Shown here piece after piece: positions 1-36,019 of a DNA stretch of 64,000 nt. Below the pieces are notes generated by a model. The model was not told the DNA's origin. It did no database searches and saw only the letters and a list, made by a program, of their open reading frames with translations. This DNA comes from Catajapyx aquilonaris (Eukaryota), in NCBI GenBank assembly GCA_000934665.2, contig JYFJ02000049.1, forward strand, positions 62,001-126,000, written 5' to 3'. The position numbers and the translations under genes were made by a program. Each line of letters begins with the position of its first letter. Position 1 is the stretch's first letter.

Positions 1-7
1 CGCCGCC

Positions 8-5447: not shown

Positions 5448-5464
5448 GGTGGTGGTGGTGGTGG
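5448..5464 (+). repeat. (GGT)5 microsatellite
   Basis: ggtggtggtggtggtgg read directly. Confidence 0.85.
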
Positions 5465-6718: not shown

Positions 6719-6812
6719 ACTCACTCAGATTTATGTGACACTTCTGACAACAAATTTGTGCGTCCTTTTCGCCAAACGCCTCACCTGCAAGGAAGAAAAA
6801 TTTACATTAATG
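6719..6812 (-). other. Candidate recursive splice site with 60-nt cryptic exon (6784-6725)
   Basis: Minus strand: CATTAAT (branch-like, A at 6807) GTAAA TTTTTCTTCCTT GCAG|GTGAGG, with AG at 6786-6785 and GT at 6784-6783. Second donor CTGA|GTGAGT at 6724-6719. Confidence 0.6.
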
Positions 6813-7049
6813 ACATATTCACAACACATGGCCGCATCAACAATGCTATTGTCCTACCCTATTTATACCATGTATAAATCAAGAGGGCAGGTGCAGGTTA
6901 CGGGACAGCGATGCCAGCTTAGCTCCTAATTGGTCTGGCACCTTTTCTACCCTCAGAAAATGCACGAACATTCTCACCTAACCCAAAAGAGGCCGAAGAC
7001 CCCTTCTGGGCCAGGGTACAAAAAAAAATTTAGTTGAAAAATTGCGCCC

Positions 7050-7232
7050 TTGAAAATTTTTGGGGAAGGCAAGAAGCCCGCCAGCAGCTTCATGTCCAGA
7101 AGAAACAAGAAGGCGGTTGCAAAGCTTATCGGGGTCTGCTCCGACGGCGCAAACAAATGACGGCGGGAGGGCCCTTTGAGAAGACGCCGCCTTTTCCCCC
7201 GACACCCCCGTTCCACTTCATTACGCCACCAG
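7050..7232 (+). pseudogene. Possible highly decayed hAT transposase fragment
   Basis: Translates LKIFGEGKKPASSFMSRRNKKAVAKLIGVCSDGAN, then (-1 shift) MTAG, then HFIT(+1)HQ. Resembles hAT KLVGxCTDGAxxMTG ... HCxxH motifs but needs two frameshifts. Confidence 0.2.
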
Positions 7233-10200
7233 CCCTCCTCTAGGGAGAAAACCTCGGGTCTGCTGCAAAGCATTGCCTGTTTCAGACCATGCTGCGGGGA
7301 GGAGATGGGGATTGGAGTTGGGAGGAGAAAAAAAAGGCCGAAAAACTTCTTTTTTTTCACGTTTCTGGCTCGTCTTTTGGCGCAATCAGGGTGTAGTAGT
7401 GATGAGCACCGATGCGCACTGTCGGGTCTCGTCAGTCCCATTCACCGCAACATTGGGTGCTCCACGAATGGCAGATGCGTTGCTTTCGGACCGTGAGATT
7501 TCCTCAAACAAACTCCACTTTGTAAATGAGCAATCAGAAAGTTTCGTCTAGAGCTAAACCTGGCCTGAAGTATACACCGTACAGCTCTCTCCCCCCAAAA
7601 ATAATTATAATAACAGCAAAAAAGAAGATGTTCGCAGATGATTCTTGACGTTAACAATACAACGTGCATACATATAATTATATGCCTCATATTTCCTTGT
7701 GGGGGCGGAAAGGTCACACACTTCAAGCAGCAAAAATCACACCAAAAGAAAAAGCCGCTTCCTTTATAAAACCTGGCGTGCAAGGTGCGTTGAATCAGTC
7801 TGCCCATCGCAAAGTCAGATAAGGACATCCAATGTACAGTTTACAGAGCGCGTGTGTCCCACTTCCAAAAAGCCGCGAGAAAATCAATTCATCTTTACAT
7901 GCCGGAAAATTGTTTCAAGTGTTCCCATGTTCCCCAACAATATACTGGAAATTCTTTGCATCCCACCCGCTCCTGTTTTACAAGCCGATTAACAAATCTA
8001 AGGAAATGTAGCCTCCGGGGTATATGGGGTCTGGAGGAGAAAATTGGTGCACGCAGCCCCAGCATTTTCTTGCGAGGAGGCGGAAAAGAATGAATCAACC
8101 CCAAATCGAATTCACCATCAAAGAAGACAAGGGAAAAGCCCCTCAGGCCTTATTTGAAGTAAGAGGAAGAAGAATAAAAAAGGGGGGGAGGAGGGGGAGG
8201 ATGAGGAAAAAAATATTCTTTTGAAACACTCTTGTTTGACAAATAAAGTCGCCGGAAGCTCCTCAAGTGAGTGTGGAATGATGGAGGATGGCAGGGGAAC
8301 CAGATCTACATCAAAGGGTGGGGAGGGGTGAATTCAGGATTCTGATATTTGCATTTCATGAGATGGAAGTAAATCTCCGCCACGTCGAACTAAAAATAGA
8401 CCTTCCAGATTCATCATTTCCCGTCATTCTTGAAAACTGGAAGTGGGGGGAAGCAATGAAAAGCACATTATTACTCCCGTGGAAAAAAAAAAAAATAGAG
8501 TAGCAGACTATTGTTTTGCGCGTATTGACGAAATTCTGGAAAAAAAAAGATTCAACAATTAATGAGGGGAAGTGCATCGAAGTGTGGGAATGGCTAAAAA
8601 GGAGCTCGTACATCATCATGAGGTTCAGGCAAAGCGGAAAATAATGAGCCCGGAAGCTGCTGGCAGGCAGGCTGGAGGTCAAGATCAACCTCGGTCGCCA
8701 TTGACAAATTACTCTGGAGAAGTGCCTACGTAGCCGTCGGGGCTCGTAAAAGGCAACTCGGCACACATCCATGATTATAAAGAGCGAAGGGCTAGCCTCG
8801 GTCTGCATGGAGGTATTCGACCATCGCCGCTCGATTAGCCGAACAATGGCCCTTGTTAAGCGTAACAAATGAACTCCGCGGTTTCGAGCACTCGGTCCTA
8901 TCGCACGATAATCATTACATATACCGTTTCCACACTTCAAGCATTACGGCCAAGATGAAGATCGCGGATTAAAATGAATTTAGTGCCAAACATGCAATGG
9001 TACAGTTCGTCATAAATAATGTGCAAGCCGCTGAGGGGTAAAGTGATACAAAGTTTCCGTTTCCAGATTGGCAAGAGCAACTTTCCAATTCGGATCTGGT
9101 GCGAAAGAACATTGGCAAGAAGTGGTGCTGTCGTGCATTTCTGAGGTTATTTTGGGCGCAATTCATTAGACCGCTCATTGCTTCCGCTCTGGCTGATATA
9201 CCTTGCCACAAAGGTGGAGCTCTCATTAGTGCTAGACAACGGCCCCTGAATGAAACATTCGCCTCGACATGTGGGCCGAGCCAATTTAATTTGGACAGAA
9301 AAAATATATATACACGACACGTCGACCACAACCCGTCTTGCACATGTGCATGCCCACAAAGGACAACTAAATGCGGTTCCCACCCCCCCTATACTTATTT
9401 CGCGCGCAATTTTGTGCAATTAACCAGGTGGCAAACGCAGACCTAACGTACATAGCAGGCTTCTCTGACCGCAAAACCCTGACACCTGTCTACACGCTTT
9501 GCCAAAGAGAAAACAGCATCCGTTTGAAGGTGTCCCGAGGGCCGACAAGTACTCCAAAAATCAATTACGTCTGGAATTTATTACACACGCACGTACGGAA
9601 AAAGTCCGGATAAGAATGATTGATCATCCGGCAGTACAAGGGAGGGTTCCGGCACTATTTTGGACATACCTTACTAGAGCTAATCAGGTCCTTTCACGTC
9701 GTCCTTTGAGCGGTAAGAGGATCCCCGTATTCCCTACGTTCATTTTCCCCAAAGCCCCCGCGTGAAAACGCTTCCTTTTCTTCATGTTCCCCTCACCACC
9801 CTTTGGAGGATCCTTCCAGACTTCCTTCCTAGTGGGGCTTCACCCCCGAACATTGAGAAAAGGCTCACAAATCCAGTTCATCTCCAGTGCCTTTTTACCC
9901 CAACAGCACCCCCTTCATTGCATTGTACCCCTGCCATATGGTCACCATCGATTTCTTCTTATTAAGTCTTATTTCACAGCGATGTCAATCTGATGCAGCT
10001 GTGGGTTCAGACGGACAAAAGAAGCGACGGGACATGTTCCGACAGCGATACACATCAAATTTAATAAATAAAAAAAATCCAGATCTGTTGTGATTGGAGG
10101 GTCAGAACCACCTACTGCCCGATTGATCCACTGATCTGATCAGTTACGCGCAACAAGTGACGGCAATGACCCGGAACTAGAGGAAATGCTCACTTGGTTT

Positions 10201-10761
10201 GGACACAAGCTGATGGGTCAAAGGCCGAAAGGGGGATTGTGTGAGAAAGATTGCAACCCCAATTAGCGGGTTGGGTTCTTGAGAGATGGACACGATTCCG
10301 CAGCAGCCAATTAGGAGGTGGCCCACACAAAACCGTGCACTCACAAAAAAGGATGCATCCACACCTTTTTCCTTCCTTTCTTGAGGTGAATTTGAATGGG
10401 GGCACGCAAACACCTCTTGTGTCTTGTCACTCATTCCTGCCCGGAGTCATCTCCCACACGATATATTCGCACGGAACTGCAGAATCAGCCAATTAAACCC
10501 TCCCAATTTCATGTAACGAGCGGTTGTGATCAGAATTTTACTGTCGTTTAATTCGCGACCTGTTTCTCCCTACCAGCATACACAAAACGATGTTGCCAGA
10601 TTTGCTGGTTTTAAATCGGCAACCTCCAGGAAGGATGAAGCGCCTTGCTGACAGGATAGAGGGCGGTTTAATTGAATTTCAAAGTTGCTGTAGCAGGGGA
10701 AAAGTAATGTCCATGGAAGACACGCCCTCTAATTTTTTTTTCGGGGGAGAAGGCCCATCAG

Positions 10762-10783
10762 TTTTTTTTTTTTAAAAAAAAAA
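10762..10783. repeat. T12-A10 homopolymer junction (20-bp perfect palindrome)
   Basis: Twelve T (10762-10773) immediately followed by ten A (10774-10783). Confidence 0.85.
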
Positions 10784-13700
10784 GAGGGGGGCGTCAGGTG
10801 GGGCGGTATTAATCAGTTGTGACCTTGAAACGGGGCTCACCTTAAGAATAACGAAGTCCATGGTCGCTTTGGGCCCAGCTTCCAAACACCTCATTGTCGT
10901 CCTTGTCCTTGCTCACATCTTCCGGATTCTACCCCTTTCCCTTATTCCCTTACATAGCCATCTGGCCCTCTAGGCACCACCCCTCTTCCTGACTCAGCTG
11001 TGTATACACACCGCGGATATTGGCCTGCCAAGCGATATCCGCTTCTCCAAATATCCCCCGTCTCTGTCACTCAACCCTAGAGGGGAGCACCGATTAATCC
11101 GTCACTACACGTGCGGTTTGGCAAAGCAGGGTACACGGACAGACCCTTCCGTAGTGGTCGCGCGACTACGACTGGGCTCAGCTCCGGACCACAGCCGCAC
11201 TGGAGGGCTCCTGCGGCCTACAGACGAACCACAGCCCCCACCCCCCATGCCTACGAACTTTTTTTTTCTCTAGCTCTTCTGGGGTCTTTTTCCGAAGGGG
11301 CCGCTGCCCTCGTCGTTGGGGCGTGGAATCGTCGTCAGGGTGGTGGACTAGTGGAGAGGTCCATCTTCTGCATTATTGCTCAGGCTTGCTCCATCAAACT
11401 CACATAGGTCCATAAGTCACGTTGGGATTGGGAAAAAGTGTGGGTTGTTCCAATACTGAACAAGACGCGCTCGAGACGTGGTCCAAATTGGGAAAAAGCC
11501 CAATCTGATAAAAGTGAGGCAACAATCACTGTGAATGTTGTTGATAAACAATTCGCAAATTGCCGCCTCATCCACCTTGGATTATAACCTTGGGCACTCT
11601 ATCATCGTGTGTACAGTATACAGTACGATAAATATGCTGCACATTGATAATCCTCCATGTGAACCCAAAAAATTCTGTAATGAGGCGCAAGTGTCCACTG
11701 ACAGTACAGTTTACTGTAATATACTGCAAACTCCGGGGAAATCCACGCATTCATAATTCATACGGTAATTTTGCAAAATCTCAATAATGAAGTTAAGCGC
11801 AGAATATCGCAGCCAATTATGTGGCCTTTGACGTCTTCAAATTGCAAAAATTGAGTGAAGTAGCCAGCATATGAACGCCTCGCTCTAATTATGATACAGT
11901 ATATTTAAAAAAAGAAATTAACTAACTTTTCCTCTATAAAGTGGCCCATATTATACATTCATTAACATCTAAGTGGAGCTGTATTTGTAACTTTTGTGAC
12001 TGAAAATTGCACAGAGGGTGAAGTGCTTGTTCCTAATCACTGAGAGCTCTCTGCTCCCTAATGGACTAATCATTATTTAATGGACACACATCGGTGGACC
12101 ACTCAACACATGACGTCAGGAGTGCAGGCCATGCTAGGAACTGTACTCTATATATCCAGGTGCACATAGCAGTTGCCCTCCGGCGGTGAATTACAGTAAT
12201 TTCATTTCAACTATCAATTAATTACTATTTAACCGGAGAATTAATTCAATATTTGTAAACAATTATTAACTAATATATATCTTCCATCTCATTAGGCTAA
12301 TATGATGCACTGTATACACTCTAGTTGCAATGATATGGCCCATGACTTCTGATGATTGTATGTTTCTTTTGTCTCTAGGGACACTGCACAATTGCAATTT
12401 CTATAATGTATCACCGTGGGCCTTGAACACTCGAGCATTTCACACACTGAAAAGCATCTCCCCTCACGCAAACCTCTGAGAGTAAGGTAATTGCCAGCAA
12501 AACTAATTCATTATCACAGGGGCAGCACGACATAACCTTCGTCAGTCAAGCCAATTATGACAAAATGCATCACACTTCACCTCCAAAATGGGCCATTTGT
12601 AACCGAGATTTATGCTTTCCAGCCATATATGAGCAGGTGGCCACATATTAGGAAGTGACAGGCGAGCAAATGACCCATGTCCTGCCCAATGTCTGCTTAC
12701 TTTCTGCTTGCTTATGTGTACAAGAAGCTGCAGGGACTCGGAACGAATGTCGGTGAGAGCAGTTGGGCGTAAAATAAATTCCAACCCTCGAAATGTTTAA
12801 GTCTTCTCCCTTCCATGACCTTTCCTACCACGGGACAGCATATGCCTCGGATTATCTCCCAGACTCCTTTATTTATAGTCATCCAATTGTAATTTATGCT
12901 GCTTTCTTCTTAGGGGGGAAGTCGTGGGGGGAAAGACAGCAAAAAGAGCCAAAACGTCTTCCGAATAACATTGAACAAAGGCGGGGGTGTTGGACCCCAC
13001 CGGGTGCGAAAAGAAGGATCCTGGTGACACATCGGGGAAGGAAGTCTGCTTCAGGGGCTGACATCTGTTTTCTTCAGACCTGATTTGTCTCCGCCACGAT
13101 TCGAAACATTTGTCATCCAAACTGGGAACCATTTTTTTAAAAAGGTGTCCGTCTTAATTATATCCCAGATTTTTCCGGTAGGTCCACCGGTAGCCGTTTG
13201 TCCCAAGGTGCGCCCCAGGGGCAGCTCTACGGGCGGTACGATTACGCCTTTTTTCTCAAAGACGTCAAAGTCGAGGGGGCATTTCCATGGCAAAAGTTCC
13301 TCTCTTGCCGAGAGGGCGGGGTACGTAAGACTCGCCCTCTTTTGTCCCTCATGGTGCTTTTGTGGTCTCTTTTCTCTGTGTCCCCTTGGTGTCCCCAACA
13401 GCTTCGAAGGGGGGAAGAGGGGTTGGGCAGGACCGGAATAATCCAAGGAGGTGCTCGAATTGCTGCGCTTGTTACAAGTGACAAGGCTTGACATTTTTAG
13501 GGAGGGGGGAAAGTGTCGCGAATCGGAACGTCGGTTCCTCCTCTGCTTCTGGACATGTCTTGTGCCGCGGCATCAAAAGACGCCGGCAAAAGACTGAATC
13601 CGACGTCGGCGGCTGTAGCTTTCAGACAGGAAAAAATAGACATTCCGCAAACATCTGTTTCAACTTTCAGACCAGCCTTCGAGCTTGGCTTAGAAAAGTG

Positions 13701-15247
13701 CAGTGTATGTCACACATCCTGCTGCCAGGTCAATGCAGGAAATTGTGACCAATGTTTTTACGACGGGGAAGACCTCGCATTAGCAAGTCTAATGCCAAGT
13801 GGGATCTCCCTCGGCTTAAAGTGTGCATGTGAATCGGTGTGTGTGTTTACAAGCCAGCCCATCCCTCTTGTTCAGTCACATAAATTATTGGCGCGGTTAT
13901 CTCTAGACACACCGCTTCGGTTTTCTTCTTCAAAAAGCCGGCGATGTTGGATGTTGACGAGAGCAAACATTGTTAAGCTGGTCTTCCCCGGGTGCAGTTG
14001 AAAGTGCAGGCATTCCGGAATTCCAAACTGCCCCTTGCTATCGCCCTGGCATTTGGTCTGCAGAGCGTGCTTCGGGTGCAACCAGAATTGCTTCGAACCA
14101 GTCGTTTGTACGAGATTCACCCTAAAGCCAAGATGTGCCACTGCACATCTCTTCTGTATATCAAATTTTGCAATATTTAATTTTATGTTCGATGTCGGTG
14201 TGCGATATGAGCAATTTCGGTTTTTCATACAGCACAGCTTCTGGTTGTAAGTATGTGCTCGAGTGTACACTTTTAGTGCAAAATATGCCAAAAAATGAGC
14301 AAGTTGCGAGCAACTTTCTTCTTGAAACGCCCCGAGGCAGCAGAAGAGTCGGGCTCATTTCGTCGCCCTATGGCCTTTGACTTGCCTCCCTTGTCATTTG
14401 CATAAGTGAGTTCACGAAACTTGAAATGTTTCCTCCACAGTTTACTCCCATCCGCTTCTTTTTTGTGTCAAAATGTATACTTTCTGAACTCCCACGGAGC
14501 TGTTCAAACCCCATTTTTGTGCTCCCGTACTTGTATGCCTTCCACCGATTTTATTATTTTCCTTCCCTCTCAAACAGGTTTTTATTATCTCCTCCCGGGT
14601 CCCTCTCGCAGAAGGAAAACTCTCACAATGAAACCACACAGTTTGCCCAAGAGCTTTCCTTTTGTGGCAGCCAGCTATGGCTATGCTGCCCTAGAGCCTT
14701 TGTCCTGCTGCCTACTACATTCAGGCCTTATCAGCCATTTTCGTCACAAAGTGGTATCAATAAATTCCTTCCAGGGTTTGTCATAACAAAATCCTCCTGG
14801 CTAAGCCGCTTGGATGTCAGAAATGTTTCCAGGAAGTGCCGCGACTTTGACTTGCAGATTAGAGCCCAAAAGTTGAGGCGTCAGACTTGTATATTTCTTA
14901 CAAGTTCTTACATATCGAAACATGTCTGGAGGACATGGTAACAAAAGGAAGCTCCTTTCTCGTTTAAAAGGATATAGGCTCAATTTGCTCTCATCGTAAT
15001 CGAATCAATAGCGAGAGAGCTCGTCTCGAAGAAAACGGGGACCCCAGCTCTGTTATAAGAAAAATACAGTAGTAATATTGTTGGCTCCGTAATGGAATTT
15101 ACATTCGTAGAATTCCGTACTTCGTTGTATTAATCTAGTTTCTTGGCCCTCGAAATGCAATAATAGCATTCTTCCAATTGCTTTTGCGACAAAAGAGGTC
15201 GATAATACAGATTGAGCTCTTCCCGGATGTGCTGATATTAAGAAGTT

Positions 15248-15340
15248 TAGTGATCGTCCGTAAACCTGATTTTTTGGAATTTTTTTGACCCCCAGGTCAC
15301 AGTCGCTGGGTCAGACCCTCCCTTCTAAAATACGTTAGGT
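15248..15340 (+). mobile_element. Degenerate short MITE-like relic
   Basis: TAGTGATCGTCCGTAAAC...TTTTTTGACCCCC...CAGACCCTCCCTTCTAAAATACGT resembles, from memory, arthropod MITEs of the GGGGTCGTCCATAAA...TTTTGACCCCCTCCCC type. No paired TIR found. Confidence 0.25.
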
Positions 15341-16973
15341 TTTTTTCAGTTTTATTCCCTTCACAAAATATTGAATCAAGTACTGACTTCCTCTTGCCAG
15401 GGTAACGTACTTTACATCTACTGTACATTGTACTACAACATCGATATGATATGGCTAGAAACATAATGGTGACAGCATAATATCAGGCCTGTAAAGACAT
15501 AAAAAAGTGCAACCTTATTTCATTAGCCAGAAGGGCCCATAAATTCCGGATCTCATTGCTATTGGTACCCGGTAAAGCATCCATAAAGCCTGAAGCAGCA
15601 CGTATCGTAAAAGTCGGAAACGTTTTCCGGCGTATAGCAAAAAAAGCTATAGCGTCCGGCTATTGGACATGTCCACTTGAGTGGCAGGCCTCATTAGTCA
15701 CTCGCCAGGAGCACGCAAGAAAAGACCGCAATAATGTCCTCAGGTAACCCCATCCCCATGGCAGCTCGGTGGACCCTCATTAGGCAAAGAAGCCAGCCAG
15801 TTTCAGCTTATTTCGTGCTAAAAAGTCAATTTACCCAACGCGAGGGCACACCCAGCGAGCATCATCAATTCAGCAACAAGAAGAAGAAGCGCCTCGGAAC
15901 CGCGCCCTTTTCTTCTCCTTTTCTCTCTCTATAGGTTATACGAAGAACGTATAGTTAGTTAGCTGGTACTTTGAGCTCAGGCCAAGTTCGCATCTGCAGG
16001 AAATGATTTGTCAGAAGCCAACTCTTTTCGTGATGGATGAATAGAAACAATGCTACTCGTTAACTACACGGTTGGTTATTCTCTACTGTCTCCTCTTAAA
16101 GTTGGGGGTTCACATGGATGTCGTTGTGGTTGGGACGCTATGTTTCAAACACTCATCTGGTAGTGAAAATAATATTCCAGCTTACAAGCTCCTGCACACT
16201 CCTACTTCTTCGAAAAAGGTCGCAGTTCGCACACTTTACGACTGTTGCTCCAAAGGTTACAGCTGTTTATAGTTCTTGCACTGCCAACAGACGCACATTT
16301 GTCCGATCAGTGCACAACCGTTGCATGTCGTCACGTGAAACACGGTCGGGGTCTCGCACATAAAATAACACCGTGCCTTTGTACGTAAATTTTCTCCGGC
16401 AGCAGGTCACTCTTTGGTATAGCATTCAGGCTCTTGACCGCGCGGTCTTTTCTGGAAATCTGTGCCTCGACAGCTGAATCTATCTTCCGGGTATAGCAGC
16501 ATCTGAAGAGAAGCTGCCAAGTCGAGCACTTGGCGGAAAGCACTCAGATAGCCTCGGCCTCCGACAATAAATCCTGCCGACAAGCGCATCCATCGGACCG
16601 ATAGTCCTCTCCGTAGGGAAATTTCAGAACTGCGGGCAATTGCCGATAGCGAGAGTCATAATTCAAAACACCCCTTTTTTTTCCCTTCCCCACCCTGTAC
16701 CACCAGCACCATCAGACAGATTTTTTTGGAGGTTGGCAGCTGCGAGGTGGAATTTTTCGCACGACTTGGGCGGATATATCGAGGGGGGAGGATATTTGAC
16801 TGGGTACAGTAGTCCGTAAAGATGAAGGCTGAAGACAGGATACTCGTGTGGTGATGGATGACCAGCGTGTAATGGTAATGTTGTCCTGATAGCGGCTCCT
16901 GGCCTTCCTCGAGAGCCTCAATTGAGAGAAGATTGACGACCTTTTGGCCAAAAACCATTACGCGGTCTTTCAT

Positions 16974-17011
16974 ACAGGGTGTTCAGTAATAATGCCAATA
17001 TCACACCCTGT
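16974..17011. mobile_element. Collapsed (~36 bp) Tc1/mariner-type mini element
   Basis: ACAGGGTGT (16974-16982) and ACACCCTGT (17003-17011) form a perfect 9-bp inverted repeat. Left end TACAGGGTGTTCAGTAATAAT matches the reverse complement of 37179-37199 at 19/21. Confidence 0.55.
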
Positions 17012-17437: not shown

Positions 17438-17448
17438 TAATCTGATTA
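17438..17448. promoter_or_regulatory. P3 paired-class homeodomain dimer site
   Basis: TAATCTGATTA matches TAATYNRATTA. Confidence 0.25.
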
Positions 17449-20400
17449 AGAGCTTTTAGAGCTTTTAGTCGGCTCTTTAATCTTGTAATGTAAATGCCCG
17501 TTATGACACAACTAATTTGCCTTTCGTCGTCGCAGTTACAGTTTGCTAATATTTTATGGCTCGAGACTCGAAAACGCGATTGTGAGCTTCGACACCAGAC
17601 GCGACGCCCGACCGTCACCAATATTATGGGAGTGGAAAAAGTGGCCTATATACGTATGTTTAGCAGTGATTCCGACAAAGTTCTATTATGGCATCTGTTA
17701 TGTCAAGCCAAAGTAAAACAACATAATAATAACAACGCCTTCATTTAAAATTAAGCATGCTACGAAGCGAGGAGGGAAGCATACCTGTCAGGATATTTTC
17801 CACTTGTGTTTGAACCGTATAATTCTGCCACTTGCACATAAAATGATATATCACTGCCCCTAAATTCACCCTAAAACAAAGTCGGTATTATTGCGACACA
17901 CAATGCCACGGCGAAGTGTGACCGTAACTCAAACGTACCACCTGCACATAACTCATTGCGCATATCGTACAACTTCCTCGTAAAACACCACGATAATAAA
18001 TAATCACAACCCATGTTGAATACACTAACAACACAAGATAAGGTTACAGGTTTCACTCCTTCCAGCAGAAGCAGGTTGGCAGTATTTCAGGATAAAGTTA
18101 TAGCGCTGCTGGCTCACCTGAATGTTACATAATATTCAGCCCGAGCTATTAGCCGCACAGTAGCTTAATCAGGGCAAGTAATTGGGGTCTGATAACTGGT
18201 TCCCGTGATAACACACGTGCTTTCGGAGCAGGCATTAATTTCCCCCTCGTAATCATTCTAAAAGGGAATCGGTTTTCTGAGCTGCCGCTTTCCCAGGTGG
18301 GGTCCTCCACCTTCAATTTTGGGAGGTGCGCCTTCATGACCGGAGGATGAGGATTGCAGCTCTTTTGATGGCGTCCGGCCAGAAATTAATTTCCTGGCCC
18401 GAGCGGACAGCCATCCGTTTGTATGTAGGCTGGTTGGGCAGCACCTTGACCCGACCGAGAGTCCCTTCCTAACGAGATGGACTATCGGTTAGGCCGAGAT
18501 AAAGCTGAGTTAGGCCAGCATAAATCAGGGGAAAGGCGCAGTAAGCCGTCTGGGATAACGAGCTTCTTGGTTTTGGGCTGCTGGTGCATGGGATAGGATA
18601 TCACTGGGGGTATATAGGTGTAAGTTCTTAGGAGGTGCATATATAGGGCTGTGTTGTATATGAGTGTGGGAGGCGATGCTGCCTCCTGGCTAAAAGGAGC
18701 AGATGGGCGCGATTGTTCAGACGCGTTTACAGTCACGGACGTGCGCCCTCCCTAAAAATTCAATTCCAACTCACGCCCCAAAAGCTGGCTCTTGCACGCC
18801 TCATTTCGAATTTATCATCCCCATCCGGGCGCATCTTAGATTTCAAGCGATGTGGCCAGCTCTGCTCAGAACCGGATGGCCCTTTCTCCCCTCAGGCATT
18901 ATTACATATCCCTGAATTTACTCCACTCGCAATTTGGCCAATTTATCTAAAATAGAGAAAATACTATGCGCAAATTATTTTCATCAATAATGCACACTCT
19001 TTAATCACATTATATTCAGAAACGATGTGCTCCAAGCAGTCTATAGGGGACGCCAACAAATTACGAGTATCGTTACCAGTATTATCCGAGATGGAGCAGA
19101 TCCTTTTGAGCGTAAGGAAGGGACTAAAAGGTTTCATAGGTCCGTAAGGGAAGGGGAGGAAGCTCAGATCTTATTATCCCCATTTCACCCTCTATTAGCT
19201 GTCGAGATGCTTCAGTGCCCGCCTAGTGCGTGCATTGGGAATGCGCTTCCAGGCCTCTCAATGATGTTCACTCCTTCAACAGAGCCTAAGCTAACTTGTC
19301 TGCCCAACAAGGGTGATATATGAAAGGAAACGCTCGAATAAATCTTGCCCGCTATCTGCCAGGCGAGGCGTGGGGGAAGCTTTATAATATGAATCGTAAA
19401 ATTATCATTTCAAGTTATTAAATCATAACTTACGATAAAAAGGAGGCAGCGAGAGGTGATGGGGGGAAAGAGGGGATGACGGGAGGACCTACTAGGCAAG
19501 ATACCAGGAGAAGAAGAAAAAATTGCTACTTGCCTGCCAGGAAGTGATTACATTTAATGGCAGGATGAGGAACTTTGGTCATTGGTTGAGAAGGACTTGC
19601 AAAAAAGGCCTCTGCTAGACGGCAATTTCATCACTGACTTAACTGATTAGATCGGAGCAGGCACAAGACCATGTTCAGACTAGCGTATAAGCACAAAAAG
19701 AAATAGGCTGCCGCATTAGTCATTTCATAAAGGAGGAACCGTGCCGACCTCCATCACTCTGTAATTAGCCCCCGTTATTACTGACTTCCCCTTTTCTCGA
19801 AAAAACGGCACTAACTCTTCTTTTGCCTAATGAGCACATTGTACGCAATCACGTCATATCATATCACTCCCAGGTGCTTTTCTTTAAACTGGTTACTGGA
19901 ATAAGCAACTCATTGTAGTGGGGGGAAAACCAGCTCAATTATTGCAACATGGCGGGTCTAACACCATTTTTCAAAAATATGACCTTCTACACACTCGGGT
20001 CTAGTTAAATTAGTTAAAACAGTGTGACTCATCCAGCGGTTAGAAAATTTGGTTTGTGGCCCCTGCTGGTGTTGCCTTCTCCCATCAAACAGACGCGTAG
20101 GGGCCAAGACACATTGCAGGACAAGCGTGAAAGACGAGCGCGCAAACACGTCTAATTGGCCATGAACGGGCTCGAAGGCAGACAAAACGCAACTCCCTAG
20201 TTTCATTCGAGCTATTAGCATCTTCGGGAGCAAATAAATTACTAGGGCGTGTCTCCCTTCCCGCCATTCTTCGTAGAAAGCAGACAAAGACAGATTTGGA
20301 CCGTGGGCTATATACCATCGAGAGAGTATTTATCCCCATTGCGTTTGGCGGACCTGTTGCGAGTCAGGAAAATCGGCGGAACCGGGTCTTGTGCCAGCCG

Positions 20401-25162: not shown

Positions 25163-25880
25163 ACACAGGGTGGACCAGGAGAAGTAGCTATTAGCTATAT
25201 AACAGTTATGTGGAGTGGCTCAGCCAAATAGGATCAGTGGGATAAGAGGTCAGTTTTAAGACCCACATGACCTGCAGCAGGACAGGTTCGAGAACCTCCG
25301 CAGGCAGGCTGTAAATTAAATTTGAGTGGCGTTTATCACTCAAGAAAGCCAAAATTGTTTTGCAGATTCTTGTGGGAAAATGTCTCTCCATAAAGTTAAT
25401 TTCATTTCAGGGAGAGTCATGCAACTGATTTCGTCAAATTAAAAAGTAATTTTTACCACCTCTGGCCCTTGATTTTACTCAAAAAGAGTAGGCGTTTCGA
25501 GTTAAATGACGTGTTAAAAACAACTCAATAATATAATTACTGAGTGGTTTTTGGTACAATTGGTGTACAAATTTGGTACATTCATGTGTTGACAACTACT
25601 GACAGGGCATATGTGCCTCAGGTAATTGTTATTAATTAATTAATATTAATTTAGCTAGGTTCAAAATTAATTTCCGCTTAACGAAATGATAGGCTTTGAT
25701 TATTATGAGGGAGACATAATGGATCCCATGATGTCACAATTCCAGCAGCAAATATTTCCACCAATTTTTACCTGGTATTATTTTTAATAACTGTTTGCAT
25801 ATGCAAGTGCTTTTAAACTTTAAAGTATTAGCTACAAACACAGCTCACCCTTGTCATATCATTTCTGAGCCACCCTGTGT
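25163..25880. mobile_element. Decayed Tc1/mariner-type MITE (~715 bp)
   Basis: Perfect 11-bp inverted repeat ACACAGGGTGG (25163-25173) / CCACCCTGTGT (25870-25880), 15/18 when extended inward. AT-rich interior with 16-bp palindrome TATTAATTAATTAATA (25630-25645). Canonical TA target duplication not preserved. Confidence 0.45.
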
Positions 25881-28800
25881 ATAAATACCGGTGAGGAGAT
25901 CCCTCACCTCCAAAAAACCAAACTTCCGCACCTTCAAAGGAGCAGCCAAATGTTTGACCCTTTTTTTTCTCCAAACTCTCCAGCTTCTACTGCTATAGAG
26001 TCAAGTTGCCGAGCAACTTTCTGGGCGTGACCTCTTCCTTTCCGAAGTGTTCCACGGCGCCATTACCTTGTTAAGTACCCGCGGTCGGTTCCCAAAGACG
26101 TTTTTCCCAGACACATTACGGTGCAGTTCACAGTCGCTACAAGGTGCACCTCCAGGTGATTGCTTTTCACGGCCAAACACATCCGGAATACCTGTCAGTG
26201 TGAACAGGTCCCTTTGGACATTAAAGGCACAACCAGCCGCAAATCCGTTTCTATATACACGCGTCCATAAATCCGCTTTGTAAACTTGAGAACAAGCCCT
26301 GGCAGAGCCCAGCCACTTGGCTAAACACTAATGAGTTTAAGTGTCCTGCTCGAGGAAAAGTTGGAGAATCGCAGCTAAGAGTTAGCACAAATTGTTGTCG
26401 GTTGGATGGCAGGCTAATTGAAACAGGTCGCATGCACGCTATCAAAGTAAGGCTTCCCTAAAAGAAAAAGAAAAAAACTTTTCCACCCCCAAAAAACCAG
26501 GAGAAGTTAACGCTCGGGTTGTCGCCTAATGAATTTAGCCCACCTCACGAGGGTTGTCCAGATGACTATTACTTCGGCACTTAAAGCAGAACTTATGGCG
26601 AGCTGCTACTCGCAAACTCGAAGACACCTTGCCAACTTCTGGCCCGTTTTTTCATCTGTAAGCGAAGAAGCGATGTTCCTACCAGCAGTTAAAAACCTCG
26701 TGAAAAGGCTGTAAACTTGAAAAGAGTTGAGGGGGGAAGTCACAGGATGGAACAGGCCAATGAAGTGGTGAAGACAACAACACGTGACGATTATTACTAA
26801 CAAATGCAAGGCTGACAAATGGCGAATCCTCCGGGAGTCCACCGGAAGGACGTCCCAAGAGGAAGTCAGACTGTTTTTGGGGTAGGAAATAAAAACGCAA
26901 TAAAAAGACACGAATAGAGCCTATTCTCACCCACTTACTTTTCCGGAACCCACTTGACGTCGTTCGTCACCACATTCCGATGACATTGCCAGCCCCTCTT
27001 TCCTGGAACACACACGCAGTCCCCGGAAGACATATACAGCTTCCCAGCAATTTATAGTTACAGATAAGTGCAGGTTGTATTTCCCCCCATGGATGTAGTC
27101 CGAACGGTCCAAAATCGGATTTAGTCACGGGGGTCGCAGCCACCTGGCGTGACCGACAGGGATATTGGTAATCCGTGGTCCGTGGCCAATTGGACCGCCA
27201 ACAATACAAGAGATGACCGTCATGGGAAGCAACAGTGGCGCATCCTCGTAAATACAAAAGTGTTCCTTGATAGCATCTTTATGAGGGGGGGTAAACTCTA
27301 TTGGTAGGGGGTTCCGTCGCGGTACAGCTGCGTTCTACCAATATGCATTATGCAAATGGGTCTCAGTTTCTGCAAGAATCAATATGATATAGGAGGGAGA
27401 GGCCCAGGGCGTTAATATTCATGGAATTGATTTTGAGCACGATCCTCCAAGCTGCAACGGATGGCAAAATGTTATCATTCGGGGCACAACCTAATTAGAG
27501 GGCATTTCATTTTTACGGTTATTTGTTTCCTTCGCCGTTACTTCATACAAGTGGCTGAATTTTTCATCCAGCTTATGACATGTGTCACTGCTGCACGCCT
27601 AGTTTCTACTCATGTTTATGTGTCTGAAGAACTACCACGATCAGTATAGAAAGGCGGGAACATAACAAAACGTGCTGAACCATTCAGTTTAGCCTGTCCG
27701 GCTTGATATTCTGTCCTCAATCACGTTGACTAGTGGCCAGCATCTTCAATAACGTGCTACAGTACGGTACTTCATTGTTCTCATCAAATAATACCTGCCA
27801 CTTGCGAGTGAGCAATTTATTTACCGTTTTTTGATTGAGTTGTTTTCCACCCAAATTGCTACAGGCATGGATGAGCGCAATTACTCAGACATCTGGATGG
27901 GTGATGACGCCGGATGTAACACTCTCTTCTTTTAATTTTGCTGCCGAACAGGCTGAAGATAGGGTCATAAAATTACATGCAATTGTTTTGTCAGTGAAAC
28001 AAAAACCATTTTCTTTTAATGGCACGCCAATAGCTCTGAGTTACCCCTATACACATAGTAAATGGTGCTGCGCATTCACACCAAAAGCGACAAATTTATT
28101 GTCCGTGCATCCCCACTTTTTGTGTACATACCGTGCCACATTATGTCTTAAATGGCTGCATTTGAAAGGCCAGGCTCTTGTGAAAAGACAGTGCAGAAGA
28201 AAAGAGAGGGGCCAGTCATCAATCATGATAATAACCAGCCCTTCTCCATTGGGTGCCGCGGATGTAGGAAGGTATTGGATGCGCGCGTTACATCGGGCCA
28301 ACCTTTTCAAATCCGAGGGATTAGGTGGCGCTCCTCTATGGATTCGCAAATCCATAACCCTTCATCAAAGATGACACCGGCATTGAGTGGCCCCCGTGCA
28401 TGGAAGCGCCCCTTTTGTGACGACGCTCGCTTAGTAGGGGACGCTTCCTGGGGCAGCCGACGGGGGTCGACACTGCACCAGCTATGTACACATATATTTT
28501 GACACTTCGGATGAGGGTTACTTCTTTTGTTCCGCTGCCTTAATCCAAATGGGTAAGCCAGATGCAAATCAACTGCCCGCTGGGGAAATTGGTGGGAACC
28601 CTTGTTGCATGAGGCCCACCCAAATATTCCCATCCTTTGGGCTGATGCCTCTCATTTGTATTATTCAATTCAGCCTGGAGGGAGGGAATCTCTTGGTGGG
28701 AGAGGGAAAGTGATGCCTGATGATGATTCGCAACAGGAACAATAATTGCGCTTCTCTTCAGCAGATGCTTCATCCTGCCGCCCATTTATCTTCCGCTCCA

Positions 28801-29789
28801 ATATCAACAAGATTTCCATTTATACTTGAAGTTGACGGAACGAGTTTACTGAATTGAAGGAATGTTACAACCTTGAACGCGAGTAATATTTAGTTACGGT
28901 GTGATCGTTAAATTAGTTGCGGCTCTTCAGAAAGGTTCACCGCGAAGAAAAATATTTACATCAGTCGAAAGCACGGTTTAAAAATTGACAAGGGGCTCAT
29001 TCAGCCTTGGTCATATGCAAGAAAAATATATCCTTATATGTACAATGTTCAGCGCATCTGGTTGTCGTCAAAATGGACGGAAATTCGCTTGTTTTATAAC
29101 CTAAAATCCTATTCCAACCATATTAGCCGAGGTTTGGGATTGACAGAAGCCTTGAACACACAAAAGCCGTAGTCCCCCGCATTTGAAGAGGAGTCCTCCA
29201 ACATTAAATCGAGGATCGACCCCTACGAAACCCCGACTCATTGACTTGACTTGTAATGACTGGACCAATTAGTGGCAATGTCCCCGTCTGTTCCCACAGG
29301 GGGAATGGGAAACTTCCACTTAGTATCATTACAACGTATGCTAGAGGCTCCAGGGTTCACCTGCCAGCGCGCTTCGTGCATGCCCAAAGTAAACTCAAGT
29401 TGACAATGTCCACATTCAGGGTGGCAGGTCATGTCCGCGGGAGGTTCCTCGTGACATGCACCGCGAACAAAGCCTCTCACTCACTCGATACTTTTGCCCT
29501 CAGTCTGCTGTATGTCAAACTATTCACTGGATACATTTTTTAAAACCTATACTAAGGGTGTTGATTACACGTTTGTTCAATTAGCCCTCTCTTTTCGGCG
29601 GTGTCAGCCCGTGAGAATGCATTAACAAAGGTGGTCCGTTTACAACCCTCAGACAGTGTTGCTCGTGACCTAACCAGGTTTGCTATCTTAATAAATATGC
29701 ACATAACTTATGACGGCCGCAGGTGACGTCACTCGGAATTATTAACAAAATGTGGGGTAGGTGGCTAGCAGGGACTGGTGAGTGGTCTT

Positions 29790-29817
29790 CCCCCGCCCCT
29801 GTCCCCTCCCCTGTCCC
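29790..29817 (-). other. G-quadruplex-forming sequence (minus strand)
   Basis: Five C-runs on the plus strand (5,4,4,4,3) separated by 1-3 nt loops. Confidence 0.5.
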
Positions 29818-30259
29818 TTGCTGGTCAAAAGTATGGGACGGGACAAGGGGGTCCCTACCCGATAATTGGATTCCTCTCTTATGAAAGAGGCGGCTGGGGT
29901 CCTTTGCTCCGAGGGCTCACTGCCCCCCTACCGCCAGCACCGAATGGATTTGGGTTGGGGGAAGCCTATCCCCAGTATGACCACCCTGAGCCTATAGGCC
30001 ATTTTTGAGCCTACTTGGCCTGACTCCAATCCGTCAAAAAAAAAGTATGAGCCCCAGTCGACAGCTGCCATCCGCAGCTTCCTTCATCACCTCGTCTGAG
30101 TCCTATTTCCTCAGGAATAGGCTGAAACAATGCCGGGTCTCCATCTCTCGTATATATATTCTAGTGGGGGAAGAATAAGTCATGTGGCGGTGTTGGCAGC
30201 GGGTGTTGGGTTAGATGGGCGCCAAGTGGAGTGTGTCGCGGTCTCTTTGATGCGAGTTA

Positions 30260-30299
30260 GGGGAGATGGGGGGACAATGGGTGGGGCAACCTCTGGGGG
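30260..30299 (+). other. G-quadruplex-forming sequence (plus strand)
   Basis: GGGG-agat-GGGGGG-acaat-GGG-t-GGGG-caacctct-GGGGG. Confidence 0.45.
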
Positions 30300-33200
30300 A
30301 CATCTGCCATCAGAGGACCGCCTGCCCGACACAACCGGACCCTGGGCTCCTTCAAGTGAATGCCGGAGCTGCTTTTGAAATGAGCTTCCAAACCAGGGGC
30401 AGTAAATCTATCAATTCTAGCCGAGGGAAAACACACCTATAGTGCCCATGGTCAACTAGGCACACGAGAAGAGGGGGAGTGAGGAGAACCAGAAGAAAAT
30501 TATGACTGTTAGTGTGGCTGGCCAGTAAACACTTTCATATAAAGTGCCTGCTGTGTGTGTGGCTAAGTGGGCTTGGAATGCTGCGGCTCCTATTATGATT
30601 GGCCGAGTAGACTTAGGCGTCTTTGTGCCAACAGTTTACTTTGTATCCGGCCACAGAGAGAAGCTTGGTAGTGTAAGTCGCAGCAGCGTGCAGGAATTTT
30701 TTTTCCTCACTCCTCCTTTTTCGACGACACGACAACAATCCGAGACCCTCCAGGAAATTCCAGGCCAAGAAAAAAGAAGCCAGGCGATGAAAACCGAAAA
30801 TGAATAGAACGAGAGCTCTTTTCTTCTCCGCGATGAAAGATTGGCTAACACACTCCTATTTTTCAAACCACTCTTTTGTTCCGGAAACAGATATATCCGC
30901 AGCTACTCCTAACTAATCATCAACCCAGCTCATTTGTAAATTATCCGGCAGTACTGGCAGCGTAACCAAATGTTTCCAAATCAATTGTTGAAGAGTACAT
31001 TATTGCAATGTTGGCTTCAAATCCTGAGCAGGTTTGGGAGCTCAGCCGGGGAGAGGCGCTTGGAGCTTCTCTCCTGTTGCTAAGCCCGTCCGTGCTGCCG
31101 CCTTTGGAGTTACCCCGAACTGCATTGGCTCTCTGAAAGTTTTCCAACAAACTTCTGGTCCACACCCATTGCACTAACTAGGTGAATAACATGCAGCTAC
31201 AGAGTACGGTACTTACGAGCGTAATGTGCGCCGGATCATCGCAGATGATAACATATAATGCAGAGTATTAACCATGTTTTAATAGCCTATAAGGCTGGAT
31301 ATCACGATCCTTGTCACTATTTTCTTTAAGAAAAAGTCTATAGAAAATATCAGCATAATATTTCGATTCGCATCCCATTTGGGCCACTAATCACATCAGG
31401 GAATGACGCAGAGTTGAACATGGCAAACTGGGCTAAATTCGCGGTTGTCAAGGGTGTGAGTCAGAGTTGTTGTCCCGACAGCGAAGAGGATCTTTGTCAC
31501 TTGCTCTGCCAATTTGAGATCGGGAGAGTGGCACCCTCGAGTGCTCAAACCAACTAGCGTGCTGCTTGCAGGCCCAAACCAGGTCTTAAAACCGGTGTTT
31601 TACGAGCCTGGATTGAAAAGGGGGCGAATAAAAAGGGTGGGTGGGGAAGAAGCAGCTATAAGACGACCTGAGTCCATCGCCTTGCATGCCGAAGCTCGTG
31701 CCTTTGACTTGATTGGATCAATGAAGAGCATTGTGGGTCGGCTAATAGGCCCCACAAATGAGGCCAAGTCGAGCAGTTTCCTCCTTGCAACGACCGCAAG
31801 CACGTGGAGACCGCCCAATGAAGCCTCCATAAAAGACAGTAATGAAGCTCATCGATGATGCGATCAATGCAACATCAGGCGCAATTTCCGACCCCGACGA
31901 CAGCCAAAATGGCCCATGACTTCAACCTTAAGCAGAGAGAGCTCACAAAACCATGAAATGGGAAAGATCACGTTTGCACCTTGCCTAAATGGGATGACTT
32001 TTTTCGGCTGTGAACCCGGGAACTCAGTCGATCGTAAATGAACTGCAAACTACTTAAAGCAATTAATTAAGAAATCAGCGGGCTTTCTAATTTTTAAAGG
32101 GTAGACGTGCGTATAGATGAACGGCAGTGTCGCATCAAAAGGCGTGGCTATCAATTAGTACAGGACATGAACACTTTATCTCCAAATTCATATAAATTGC
32201 ATGGTTGTCTACACTGATGTAGCTACAAATCAAGTCCTTACAAAATCTGGTTTTAATCCGAATTAACGCACACTCTAATATCCTCTCTAACGATTTACTG
32301 CATAAGTACGCTGCATCCTGCATGACATTAATGATACCGGTAAATTTCAAAAAAATTTCAAAAATAAAAGGCAGCTTCACGTCCCCAACTTGAGGCCACA
32401 ACAATCAGGAATACAAACTGCGCAGCGTCCGGGAATAGACTAAAAGCTGGTAAACCCCCGCCATTCATCAATTAGTGTCCGCAAATGGGACTGATCCATT
32501 TATCTTGAATGCAGTGACATTGCCTTTGACGCGTGGAGGGATCCCCCCACCTCCCACCCCTCCTATACCTCCCTAAAAAAATTTGTTGGGGGAAAAATGT
32601 CCAGCTTAGTCAGCATTTTGCGTGGAAGCTGGGGAGAGAGCAGGGTGTTTCAAAATTAGAGGGGTTAATCACTTTCGGACAATCCTCCCATTCGAGCACA
32701 CTATTTTTTTTCTCCATGGGGAAACTCGTGTGGCCTATCCCTAGGCCGCCCTAGGGTCCAATTAGGGGGGCCGGACGAGTGACGATGATTCCAGCAGAAT
32801 AATGAGAGACACGCCGAAAGGAAAGAGAAAAGCGAAGAAAAAGAGCTGGGGCTTTGCTGGTGCTAATAGGCAGACGGGAAAAGGTGGAAAGCCTCGGGTT
32901 TGAGAGGCCTTGTTATCGGTGGAATTAGCGGAGGGAACATGCGATTAACAGTCCGCGGCCAATTGGCACTTTGCTCTCCACAGACTTTAATCCCGGAGCA
33001 GGGTTCTCCCCTGCCAGTCTCCACAACTAACTTCCAACATTCCGGCCGCTGAAGTTTCACAGTCTTTTTTCTCTCCTAAAATTTCGGTGTATCCCGGACC
33101 CTGTCTAACTGGAGGGGATGTCCTCGTATGAAGATTCGCTGCACGTGGCTTGTTCCGGGGTTTACATTATGAATATTAAAGAAGCTGCGTTTGCACTAGG

Positions 33201-33866
33201 GCCCGTTATGAAGGGAGAAGATTCTTTCATTCCCATCGATTTGAAGGCACAGTAAACATTGCCAGGCACAGCTATGGCAGCAGATTCCCCCTTCCCCCAT
33301 GTCTTATAAGGGGGCACTTGAACTGAGAAGACGGCCGATTTTGGATCGAACGGGTCATATTCCACTAGGAGGGGAAGAAAATGTTACGACGTTGCTACGT
33401 GTGCAAGGGCTGTTGGTTTTCAGCGGATGTTTACGTCTCGCATAATAACTGCGCACGTTGAAAGATTGCTAATGGTGTATATTGATACCCATTTCGCATT
33501 GATTTTCGATGAGCCGGTTGTGATACACTGTTATGGTCCAAGCGACATATTTTAAGAATCTGCACTAACATTCTAGTAGTAGATTCTGTGCACATCCATC
33601 GTGCTAATTGGATGCACCCTTCGCAATTCATTTCCAATTCTGATAAGAGATGTCCCCTCCCTGTGAAAGAAGCCATTTTGAGGTCGCAACGAGCACATCT
33701 CCGGACTTTTTTCCGGTTTCGCATCACGGATGAATCACATTGTGAGGAGACCCGAGGCTCTCTCCCTGGACAAGCAAGGGGAAGATGACACAGATAATAG
33801 GCTTGGTGGGAAAAGCGGAGGAGGAGGAGGGGAAAAAAAGAACAGCACTAGTGGGAATTATGCATG

Positions 33867-33889
33867 TCCGCCCCTGGATCCGCCCCTGG
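33867..33889 (-). mobile_element. Solo hAT-type MITE terminus (CAGGGGCGGATCCAG)
   Basis: tccgcccctgg-a-tccgcccctgg; reverse complement CCAGGGGCGGATCCAGGGGCGGA, a common non-autonomous hAT end. No partner end seen. Confidence 0.4.
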
Positions 33890-35940
33890 GCCAGGCTCTT
33901 AATTGGAAGCCCTAATGAGGCCCAAACGATCTCTACGGGTCACGACCTCTCTCCAGCTTGTTTATAGTCCCTGGTAAAAAGAAAATCTCCCATTTGCAAG
34001 TCATTTTCTCCTTGGTTCATACTATGCTTTGAGTCGAGCTTCAATTTAAAACCGGGCAAATTTGGCTTTTTCCGAGCCTTCTGCTGGCTGACTCACGCTC
34101 TATCGCACTGCAGCGGAGGGAATTGGGAGACTGGAGGAATCAAAGAGGGAGGGGACCGCACCGTGTAATTGGCAAGAGTCATACGCATGTTATTAGTATC
34201 ACGCGACTCGATGGGGGGGACACACCACGAGGGGGAAAGTTGACAGAATGACAGGCTTTCCAGAAAATGCAACGCCTGCTGCATAGGCAAATAGCCGTGC
34301 ATGCGAAACACTTTGGTCATCTAACTGCCAGGATGACACTTCCCCCCCCCCCCTCCCCTCTTCACTTCCAGGCTTCTTTTCTCCAGGTTTTCAATATTCG
34401 CTAGGCATCCCTGGGAGCGCTCCAGCGGGCATGAATAACAAACGCCGGCTGCTGGCTTTGTCAACTCCCTACCTGAGAAGCCCATCCACCCACACCCCCT
34501 AACTTTGCCAGTTTCTCCGCGCCTTGATTAGCACGTAATGATACAGACGCTCCTAAAGACCTATTTCGCTCCCTTCCCCCCTATACTTCAGCAAGGGTAG
34601 GATGAAAGTTGCTCAGATATCTCTACAGCCTCTGGAACTATACACGGATTGCGTTTCCAGGACACAAATTTTCTTAGGATTGTTCGTTCCAACTTGCTGC
34701 AAGCTACATCTTAATTAGGTCTTTGCACAAGCTATAGACGAGGATCTTTTTTTTTTTAAATGTCTTTGGCTGAATCCATCAACACATCTTCTGATCTCAA
34801 ACCGACTGCTTACGAACACAATGGCTTGAGTCGGACACGATTCGGACCGGAATAAATTTTGGTCACGTCTCATAGACGACTAGAATTCTCCAGTGTGACA
34901 GGAAGAAGTGAGGAAAAAAAAAGAACTAGTCCGGGGGACTCAGTCGGAAGCACTTTGTGGAGCTTCTTCTTCCCAGTAAGAGGAACAAATCGACGCAGCG
35001 GAGAAAAGAATGTTCCGGATGATTTGGGTTGGCGGGAGCAGAGAGAAACCTGATTACCGGTCGGAGCAAAGGCAAATCCTGGCCTGTCAATCAGTCGCTG
35101 GCAAGTAAGCATTTCTCCCACCCCCACTGGTTGGAAAGAAAGAAAGCAAGGTGAAAGGCAACCTTGTAGTAGAGGGTGGGATGGCGCGTGTTTGCGTGCG
35201 CCATCCCCCGTGCACATCAGGGGTTGGAACCGGGTCAATACTCCTGTCACACACAATATGACTCAATTGCTGGCTCAAGTGGGCCGTAATGATGTTCCGA
35301 CGACTCTTTAGCAGGCGACGCCTCCACATTCCTTTCCGACTCCTGCCTTGAGCTTTTCTTCCTCAACATGATTGCTCCGATTGTTCCTGGCCGAACTCTA
35401 ATGTTAGCGTACCTGCTTCCGGTATAGTAGGCACTCAGTCGGTGGTTTACCGTACAAACTAATTTTCGGAGAGTATCGACCCTCTTTAGCACACCTGCTG
35501 TTTTTTATTAAAATGGTTAGTCATTTACTAGGAATCAAAGTTTCAGGCACGTGGTGCTAAGAAGGGTGAATCATCATTTTTCTGTACGTTGCCCAGAACG
35601 AAAAATTCCTGTAACCATCAGCGAAATCCTTCAAGTGCAAGTGACATTATCTGCCTCTCGGTTCAACGCCCGCAAGAAATATTGTCCACGTTCACTTCCT
35701 GCATATATAGCCTATGTGAGATGCGGTCTCATCAGCGCATTAAAAAAAAAATCCCCGCAGCTAGTTCCTAACCGCTAATGGCATTCTTCCGCAAATGAAA
35801 GATAAGGGACTGAGAAAGGCGACATTGCTTATTTCACCATCCGGAAGCCCTAATGAGCCTTTCTCAAGCCTCTCAGGTCATAAATCAGCCGACGATTGTC
35901 TACCCCCACCAAAAAAAGGCGATAAATACACGCACCTCAG

Positions 35941-36019
35941 CCTTACCTTGCTGACTCCACACATTTCCAAATATTGAACCGCAGCTTACCTGCAATATAG
36001 AGAGAGAAATCAGTTAGTG
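35941..36019 (-). other. Candidate recursive splice site (ratchet point) with 43-nt cryptic exon (35989-35947)
   Basis: Minus strand: CACTAAC (branch A at 36014, 24 nt upstream) TGA TTTCTCTCTCTATATT GCAG|GTAAGC, with AG at 35991-35990, GT at 35989-35988 and no intervening AG. Second donor CAAG|GTAAGG at 35946-35941. Confidence 0.7.

Follow-up and report, generated by a model that had tools for sequence, protein, structure and literature searches.

Two putative recursive splice sites on the minus strand of a 64-kb stretch of Catajapyx aquilonaris DNA

Introduction

The DNA described here is a stretch of 64,000 nucleotides (nt) of Catajapyx aquilonaris (GenBank assembly GCA_000934665.2, contig JYFJ02000049.1, positions 62,001 to 126,000 of the forward strand); this whole stretch is referred to below as the window and all coordinates are counted from its first letter. 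Its minus strand carries two junctions, at 35990 (site 1) and 6785 (site 2), in which a splice-acceptor motif with a pyrimidine tract is fused directly to a splice-donor motif. The two sites are probably genuine recursive splice sites of the Drosophila type (ratchet points), and would lie within a very long intron on the minus strand. Both their sequence anatomy and their rarity are established in the following sections.

Sequence anatomy of the two sites

The motif CAGGTRAG occurs six times in the window, at 6780–6787, 18113–18120, 35985–35992, 44800–44807, 46325–46332 and 51777–51784, and a motif count confirms what an earlier sequence-only reading of this DNA had listed, namely that all six copies are on the minus strand and none is on the plus strand. 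The same reading had held that a pyrimidine tract, a branch-like motif and a downstream donor come together only at 35990 and 6785. This also stands: the 20 bases before the AG contain 16 pyrimidines at 35990 and 14 at 6785, compared with 9, 7, 5 and 9 at 18118, 44805, 46330 and 51782, and downstream donors are located at +43 and +60, respectively. Site 1 reads TTGCAG/GTAAGC and site 2 reads TTGCAG/GTGAGG (the slash marks the boundary between the acceptor and the donor). Pyrimidines occupy 12 of the 14 positions from -20 to -7 at site 1 and 11 of the 14 at site 2, and TT is found at -6/-5 in both. The components of the two sites, together with the segment between them, are as follows.

36013–36017, minus strand: branch-point-like CTAAC of site 1, with its second A at -25, as read from the sequence
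35990–36009, minus strand: acceptor of site 1, consisting of the tract TTTCTCTCTCTATATT and then GCAG, with TT at -6/-5
35984–35989, minus strand: regenerated donor GTAAGC of site 1, immediately 3' of the AG
35947–35989, minus strand: putative cryptic recursive-splicing exon (RS-exon) of site 1, with a length of 43 nt that is not divisible by three
35941–35946, minus strand: downstream donor AAG/GTAAGG of site 1 at +43 (GT at 35946–35945), which would define the RS-exon
6806–6810, minus strand: branch-point-like TTAAT of site 2, with its second A at -23, as read from the sequence
6785–6800, minus strand: acceptor of site 2, consisting of TTTTTCTTCCTT and then GCAG, with TT at -6/-5
6779–6784, minus strand: regenerated donor GTGAGG of site 2
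6725–6784, minus strand: putative cryptic RS-exon of site 2, 60 nt
6719–6724, minus strand: downstream donor TGA/GTGAGT of site 2 at +60 (GT at 6724–6723)
6785–35989, minus strand: segment between the two sites, 29,205 nt, which would leave in one step

The measured spacing of 29,205 nt agrees with the 29.2 kb given in the sequence-only reading. No AG is present between the branch-like motif and the acceptor at either site. The 60-nt piece of site 2 is a multiple of three in length and, when read by eye, has stops in two frames and is open in one. Upstream of both acceptors and on the same strand there is a GTGAG donor (GTGAGG at 36058–36053, at a distance of 69 nt, and GTGAGA at 6977–6972, at a distance of 192 nt), so that each acceptor could also close a short conventional intron; this alternative is taken up below.

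The plus strand contains no equally complete site, as had been claimed: whichever pyrimidine threshold was applied, the minus strand has two composite sites and the plus strand none, and the plus strand is also missing from a relaxed list of TTNYAG/GT junctions. When metagenome contigs were scanned for exact copies of the two site cores, neither core had a match, and a homologue search with the 124-residue plus-strand open reading frame (ORF) that overlies 6785, used as a proxy for conservation, gave no match.

Chance expectation

The composite motif, as defined from the fly literature, consists of a pyrimidine tract, TT at -6/-5 and YAG/GTRAG. Markov models of order 1, 3 and 5 (300 simulations each) predict 0.03–0.07 such motifs per strand, and an estimate that uses the real pyrimidine-tract density of the window predicts 0.05–0.10 per strand. 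With two observed on the minus strand and none on the plus strand, the probability of finding at least two is 0.0004–0.005 across these null models. On the complementary strands of introns longer than 50 kb in 13 animals, Table 2 of PMC2773006 gives 0–0.12 sites per 100 kb, mostly about 0.1; taking this control rate as ~0.1 per 100 kb, or ~0.06 per 64 kb, the probability of at least two sites is 0.002, with the qualification that the comparison is approximate, the composite threshold used here being different from the published 80% matrix score. At the published sense-strand rates the corresponding probability for 64 kb is 0.41 in the fly, 0.14 in the mosquito and 0.04–0.10 in bee, sea urchin and beetle. 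The contrast between these sense-strand values and the control value favours real recursive sites.

Two further measures point in the same direction. A GTRAG at +25 to +100 follows 10.5% of minus-strand positions, which gives a chance of 0.011 that both sites would be followed by one. When all 388 AG/GT junctions on both strands are ordered by a simple composite score, 35990 and 6785 are ranked first and second. The bare motif CAGGTRAG, in contrast to the composite, is not enriched, with six copies found and 3.55 expected on both strands, and at least six occurring in 10 of 100 shuffles. Its 6:0 division between the strands is marginal (p ~0.03) and largely follows the G>C skew of the window; a G- and T-rich minus strand alone predicts a 1.1–1.3-fold excess of the motif.

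Comparison with known recursive splice sites

In Drosophila, the acceptor fused to a donor is recognised by means of a cryptic RS-exon of ~50 nt, which ends at a second donor and is subsequently skipped; these exons are mostly out of frame, with lengths of 53 nt in Ubx-RP and 56 nt in chinmo (passages of PMC8605326). According to the portions of the fly reports used here (10.1101/006163, PMC6110457, PMC8605326), TT at -5/-6 is present in 196 of 197 ratchet points compared with 43.76% of ordinary introns, the branch points are mostly located from -36 to -21 and are usually A, and the recursive segments measure 2,596–63,580 nt and average 17,953 nt. The ratchet points lie on the sense strand of introns longer than 11 kb, and mostly longer than 40 kb, with named examples in Ubx, kuz, osp, fz, luna and Antp (same portions), and the abstract of PMC6110457 states that most fly introns longer than 40 kb have recursive sites.

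Both sites of the window share with the fly ratchet points the AG/GT juxtaposition, the pyrimidine tract and the TT at -5/-6. Their branch-like A residues at -25 (CTAAC) and -23 (TTAAT), as read from the sequence, fall inside the fly range of -36 to -21, and the second donors at +43 and +60 bracket the ~50 nt of fly RS-exons. The 43-nt piece is out of frame like most fly RS-exons, whereas the 60-nt piece of site 2 is in frame, but two of its frames have stops. The 29.2-kb step is inside the range of fly segments, and the setting is likewise a long stretch without coding sequence. In a fly table of recursive sites (PMC6110457 S1; 539 rows, equal to 539 occurrences of gene identifiers, so that the counts are possibly lower bounds), TTGCAG/GT occurs 128 times and AGGTAAGC, the GTAAGC form found at site 1, occurs 43 times as the commonest GTAAG form; site 1 is therefore of textbook form. 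The 13-mer of neither site is in the table, which is from fly S2 cells. Fly ratchet points are further marked by reads joining an exon to the ratchet point, a sawtooth profile of read density, recursive lariats and a core that is much better conserved among related species than the intron around it; the sites of the window are proposed from their sequence.

Outside flies, motif-defined ratchet-point (RP) sites have been described as enriched 4- to >20-fold on the sense strand of introns longer than 50 kb in fruit fly, mosquito, bee, beetle and sea urchin (Shepard et al., 2009; PMC2773006, in the parts used here). The evidence there is likewise confined to motifs, and the density in the window (two sites in 64 kb, equal to 3.1 per 100 kb) is of the order of that in the fly (2.2) and far above the control (~0.1), the motif threshold being another one; the published survey differs in that gene models and strands were known, whereas here the motif alone was read. 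For vertebrates, the same parts of PMC2773006 show no sense-strand enrichment of motif-defined sites (ratios of 0.9–1.5), and vertebrate RS-exons (Sibley et al., 2015, as cited in PMC8605326) depend on exon definition, in which the regenerated donor faces competition from a donor further downstream. Downstream donors are present at both sites of the window, as in the vertebrate exons; how strong they are compared with the regenerated donors would depend on the end of the upstream exon. For the locust NPF1 gene, the relevant part of PMC8892266 describes a predicted recursive site in the 230-kb intron 2, supported by U2AF65 RNA immunoprecipitation. Like ours, this prediction started from a motif, and it concerns an insect outside the drosophilids whose introns are long; it differs in its immunoprecipitation support.

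The sequence-only reading had put some weight on the novelty of a case in another lineage, which was an overstatement, as enrichment in mosquito, bee, beetle and sea urchin and the locust prediction were already available in these sources. Judged by titles and the openings of abstracts, neither the 40 top-ranked of 479 papers on recursive splicing nor those that also concern Anopheles include an RNA-based catalogue outside flies and vertebrates.

Composition and coding signal of the window

The G+C content remains at 45–49% along the entire window, with an overall value of 47%. The observed/expected ratios are 0.78 for CpG and 0.74 for TpA; the CpG value is unlike that of vertebrate bulk DNA and is a point of difference from vertebrates. 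Internal repeats are almost absent, apart from a single small tandem array. An Rfam scan found no families at the gathering score and a tRNA scan found no tRNA; a match to Vax2os1 in an Rfam scan at E ≤ 1 was set aside as being at chance level (18.5 bits compared with a gathering score of 55). A Pfam comparison of the complete set of 146 stop-to-stop ORFs of at least 90 amino acids gave just two weak matches below the cutoff, DUF5522 (E 0.0059) and DUF5575_N (E 0.00042), both under the curated score. The same comparison for 131 of the 521 ORFs of 50–89 amino acids, namely those within 1–15310, gave no matches.

The number of ORFs of at least 90 amino acids is near that in Markov simulations (146 compared with 120 ± 12), and the 993 ORFs of at least 40 amino acids show no excess of codon periodicity, with a mean chi-square of 5.9 (six degrees of freedom) and a largest value of 23.8. 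The longest ORF (239 amino acids, 43923–44639 on the minus strand) has neither a Pfam match nor a periodicity signal. The view of the sequence-only reading that the window contains no coding exon is thus supported, though not proven, by the Pfam results, the ORF counts and the periodicity. With no coding signal, no RNA genes and few repeats, the window looks like unique non-coding DNA of a eukaryote that is poor in transposons.

Homopolymer runs of A, T and C are frequent, with 75 A runs and 60 T runs of at least six and C runs of up to 13. Several 8-mers, built on CAGCAGC, CTGCTGGA, CCAGCAGC and ACAGGGTG/ACACCCTG, are over-represented 5- to 9-fold. The octamer ATGCAAAT is present in 19 copies with both strands summed, compared with ~2.4 expected from the base composition, and its copies are scattered across the whole window.

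Plus-strand starts of ATGCAAAT: 16, 2045, 24160, 27350, 28562, 40618, 46224, 55420, 56227, 59096
Reverse-complement starts of ATGCAAAT: 8347, 14396, 17107, 21459, 21501, 21808, 36284, 54035, 57179

We take this octamer to be a site for POU/octamer factors, and its density hints at dense regulatory DNA. The tandem array occupies 45810–46153, with a 127-nt unit in ~2.2 copies and 30-nt sub-repeats, and is rich in words resembling ATCGATA/TATCGATA; TATCGATA resembles the DRE/BEAF-type motif of insects. The words GATATATC and ATATATCG belong to the 8-mers with the strongest over-representation in the window.

Other junctions on the minus strand

The four remaining CAG/GTGAG junctions (51782, 46330, 44805 and 18118) are tract-less and resemble plain exon-end donors rather than ratchet points. 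One possibility is that they serve as donors for alternative, non-coding first exons belonging to the same gene on the minus strand. The ORFs that immediately precede the donors at 46330 and 44805 were considered as coding first exons and were discarded, as their translations look non-coding. The tandem array described above sits between these two junctions. A third, weaker candidate is also found on this strand.

49943–50033, minus strand: CCCTCGCTGCTTATAG/GTGAAG at 50010, followed 61 nt further on by a GTGAGT donor

This junction is third by composite score among the 388 AG/GT junctions, with a gap separating it from the top two. Since GTGAAG does not have a G at +5, 50010 is only a candidate.

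Proposed mechanism

From the anatomy of the two sites we infer the intronic status of the window, the transcribed strand, the order of the splicing steps and the actual use of the sites. The donor of an upstream exon, which would be located to the right of 35990 or past the right edge of the window, would be spliced to the acceptor TTGCAG at 35990, which would be recognised by exon definition through the 43-nt cryptic RS-exon ending in AAG/GTAAGG. Ligation would then place the upstream exon directly before GTAAGC, which would act as a new donor and be spliced to the acceptor at 6785, taking out 29.2 kb. The latter acceptor would be defined by the 60-nt cryptic exon ending in /GTGAGT, and the GTGAGG regenerated at 6785 would serve in the next step, leftwards past 6719. 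The mRNA would retain neither of the cryptic exons. The stepwise splicing that the sequence-only reading had proposed is consistent with the full published anatomy, the rarity of the composite motif and the lack of coding signal; what does not carry over is the argument from strand coherence, by which the common strand of the six CAG/GTRAG junctions was taken to show the orientation of a gene. This evidence is weak, as the count is at chance level, the GTRAG excess is largely a matter of skew and the sense strands of long insect introns are, if anything, slightly poorer in donors.

Alternative explanations

Several observations count against recursive splicing on the minus strand. The base composition departs significantly and fairly uniformly from strand symmetry: on the plus strand A exceeds T (skew +0.026, z 4.7) and C exceeds G (z -7.5 for a G-C skew of -0.043), and most 4-kb bins agree in sign. 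The sense strands of Drosophila introns have T>A and C>G (in the part of PMC5786239 used here), so that the minus strand agrees with this rule in its T>A and contradicts it in its G>C, and neither strand fits fully; the skew would fit minus-strand transcription under the vertebrate rule, or an effect of replication direction. GTRAG is found 96 times on the minus strand and 66 times on the plus strand (p 0.13 after composition correction) and AATAAA 21 and 38 times (p 0.10 after composition correction). Acceptor-like motifs, which are more frequent on the sense strand of long insect introns (Table 4 of PMC2773006), are symmetric here, with plus/minus counts of 140/138, 66/65, 32/28 and 13/12, and donor-like motifs are slightly fewer on that strand (Table 3 of PMC2773006), so that the minus-strand excess of 96 compared with 66 runs opposite to the trend in long insect introns. 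Dipteran introns, mainly those shorter than 1 kb, also show depletion of cryptic donors on the sense strand and selection against them there (relevant part of PMC3245539). Given this scarcity of donors on the sense strand of insect introns, the excess on the minus strand could even mean that the plus strand is the sense strand. The general strand indicators are therefore split or neutral and do not single out the minus strand; owing to these mixed signals, base skew, AATAAA depletion and the donor and acceptor counts were dropped as indicators of the transcribed strand. To these points may be added the approximate nature of the comparison with published rates, the choice of the sites by eye before the test and the adoption of the TT criterion from a paper after the sequences had been seen. 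The tracts are also shorter and less T-pure than those of the fly examples, and site 2 is less typical than site 1, its GTGAGG form (AGGTGAGG) having just two occurrences in the fly table, although CAGGTGAG is common among fly recursive sites, with 57 occurrences (PMC6110457 S1).

A rival explanation would make the two sites fortuitous matches, located either in intergenic or regulatory DNA or within an intron of a gene on the plus strand, with a minus-strand donor bias arising from the G>C and T>A skew or from selection against cryptic donors on a plus sense strand. The bare CAGGTRAG count at chance level, the strand differences in GTRAG and AATAAA that are not significant after correction and the symmetry of the acceptor-like motifs are all as expected in this case, and donor depletion of the insect kind would make the plus strand, with its complete lack of CAGGTRAG, the sense strand. 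A relaxed motif, TTNYAG/GT with a tract, gives four matches on the minus strand and none on the plus strand with ~2 expected per strand, which is not significant, and the two sites were singled out by eye in one window among very many. We nevertheless consider chance to be an unlikely explanation, because the composite is rare under every null model tried as well as under the published control rate, the downstream donors at both sites contribute an additional factor of 0.011, the two sites stand clearly apart from the other 386 AG/GT junctions and the depletion of cryptic donors is reported mainly for introns of less than 1 kb.

Still less probable, in our view, is that the acceptors are real but ordinary. 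They would then close short introns (36058–35990, 69 nt, and 6977–6785, 192 nt) of an unannotated minus-strand transcript, probably of non-coding or untranslated-region sequence, or the 43- and 60-nt pieces would be expressed cassette exons that start with GTRAG. The GTRAG donors located 69 and 192 nt upstream on the same strand would suit the former, but at the minus-strand density of 0.0015 per nt a GTRAG within 200 nt upstream is expected at about one site in four. The latter would suit the 60-nt piece, whose length is divisible by three and which has one open frame, and expressed RS-exons do occur in flies (fewer than 50, compared with more than 500 intronic sites, in the part of PMC8605326 used here); an ordinary exon, however, would start with GTRAG only by rare chance and here both pieces do so, and neither periodicity nor a Pfam match is found near either site. 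An expressed exon that begins with a donor would in any case still undergo splicing of the recursive type, so that this explanation overlaps with the one that we favour.

Recursive splicing from the minus strand thus remains the explanation to which we give the most credence. A more specific form of it can be put forward only tentatively: that two (perhaps three) working zero-nucleotide ratchet points with cryptic RS-exons are present in an intron of more than 60 kb in a non-drosophilid invertebrate, which would make this the first sequence-resolved case in its lineage of stepwise intron removal in the fly mode. The junctions at 51782, 46330, 44805 and 18118 might in that event feed the same ratchet as donors of alternative non-coding first exons.

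Biological implications

Recursive splicing and its motif are well described in flies and enrichment of the motif is known elsewhere, so that the gain would lie mainly in annotation and in gauging how widespread the fly mode is. No new principle would be involved and the general interest is modest. If the proposal is correct, the two sites would place the window within a very long intron on the minus strand, probably in a gene with a developmental or neural role, and would add a case of recursive splicing in a genome in which it had not previously been examined.

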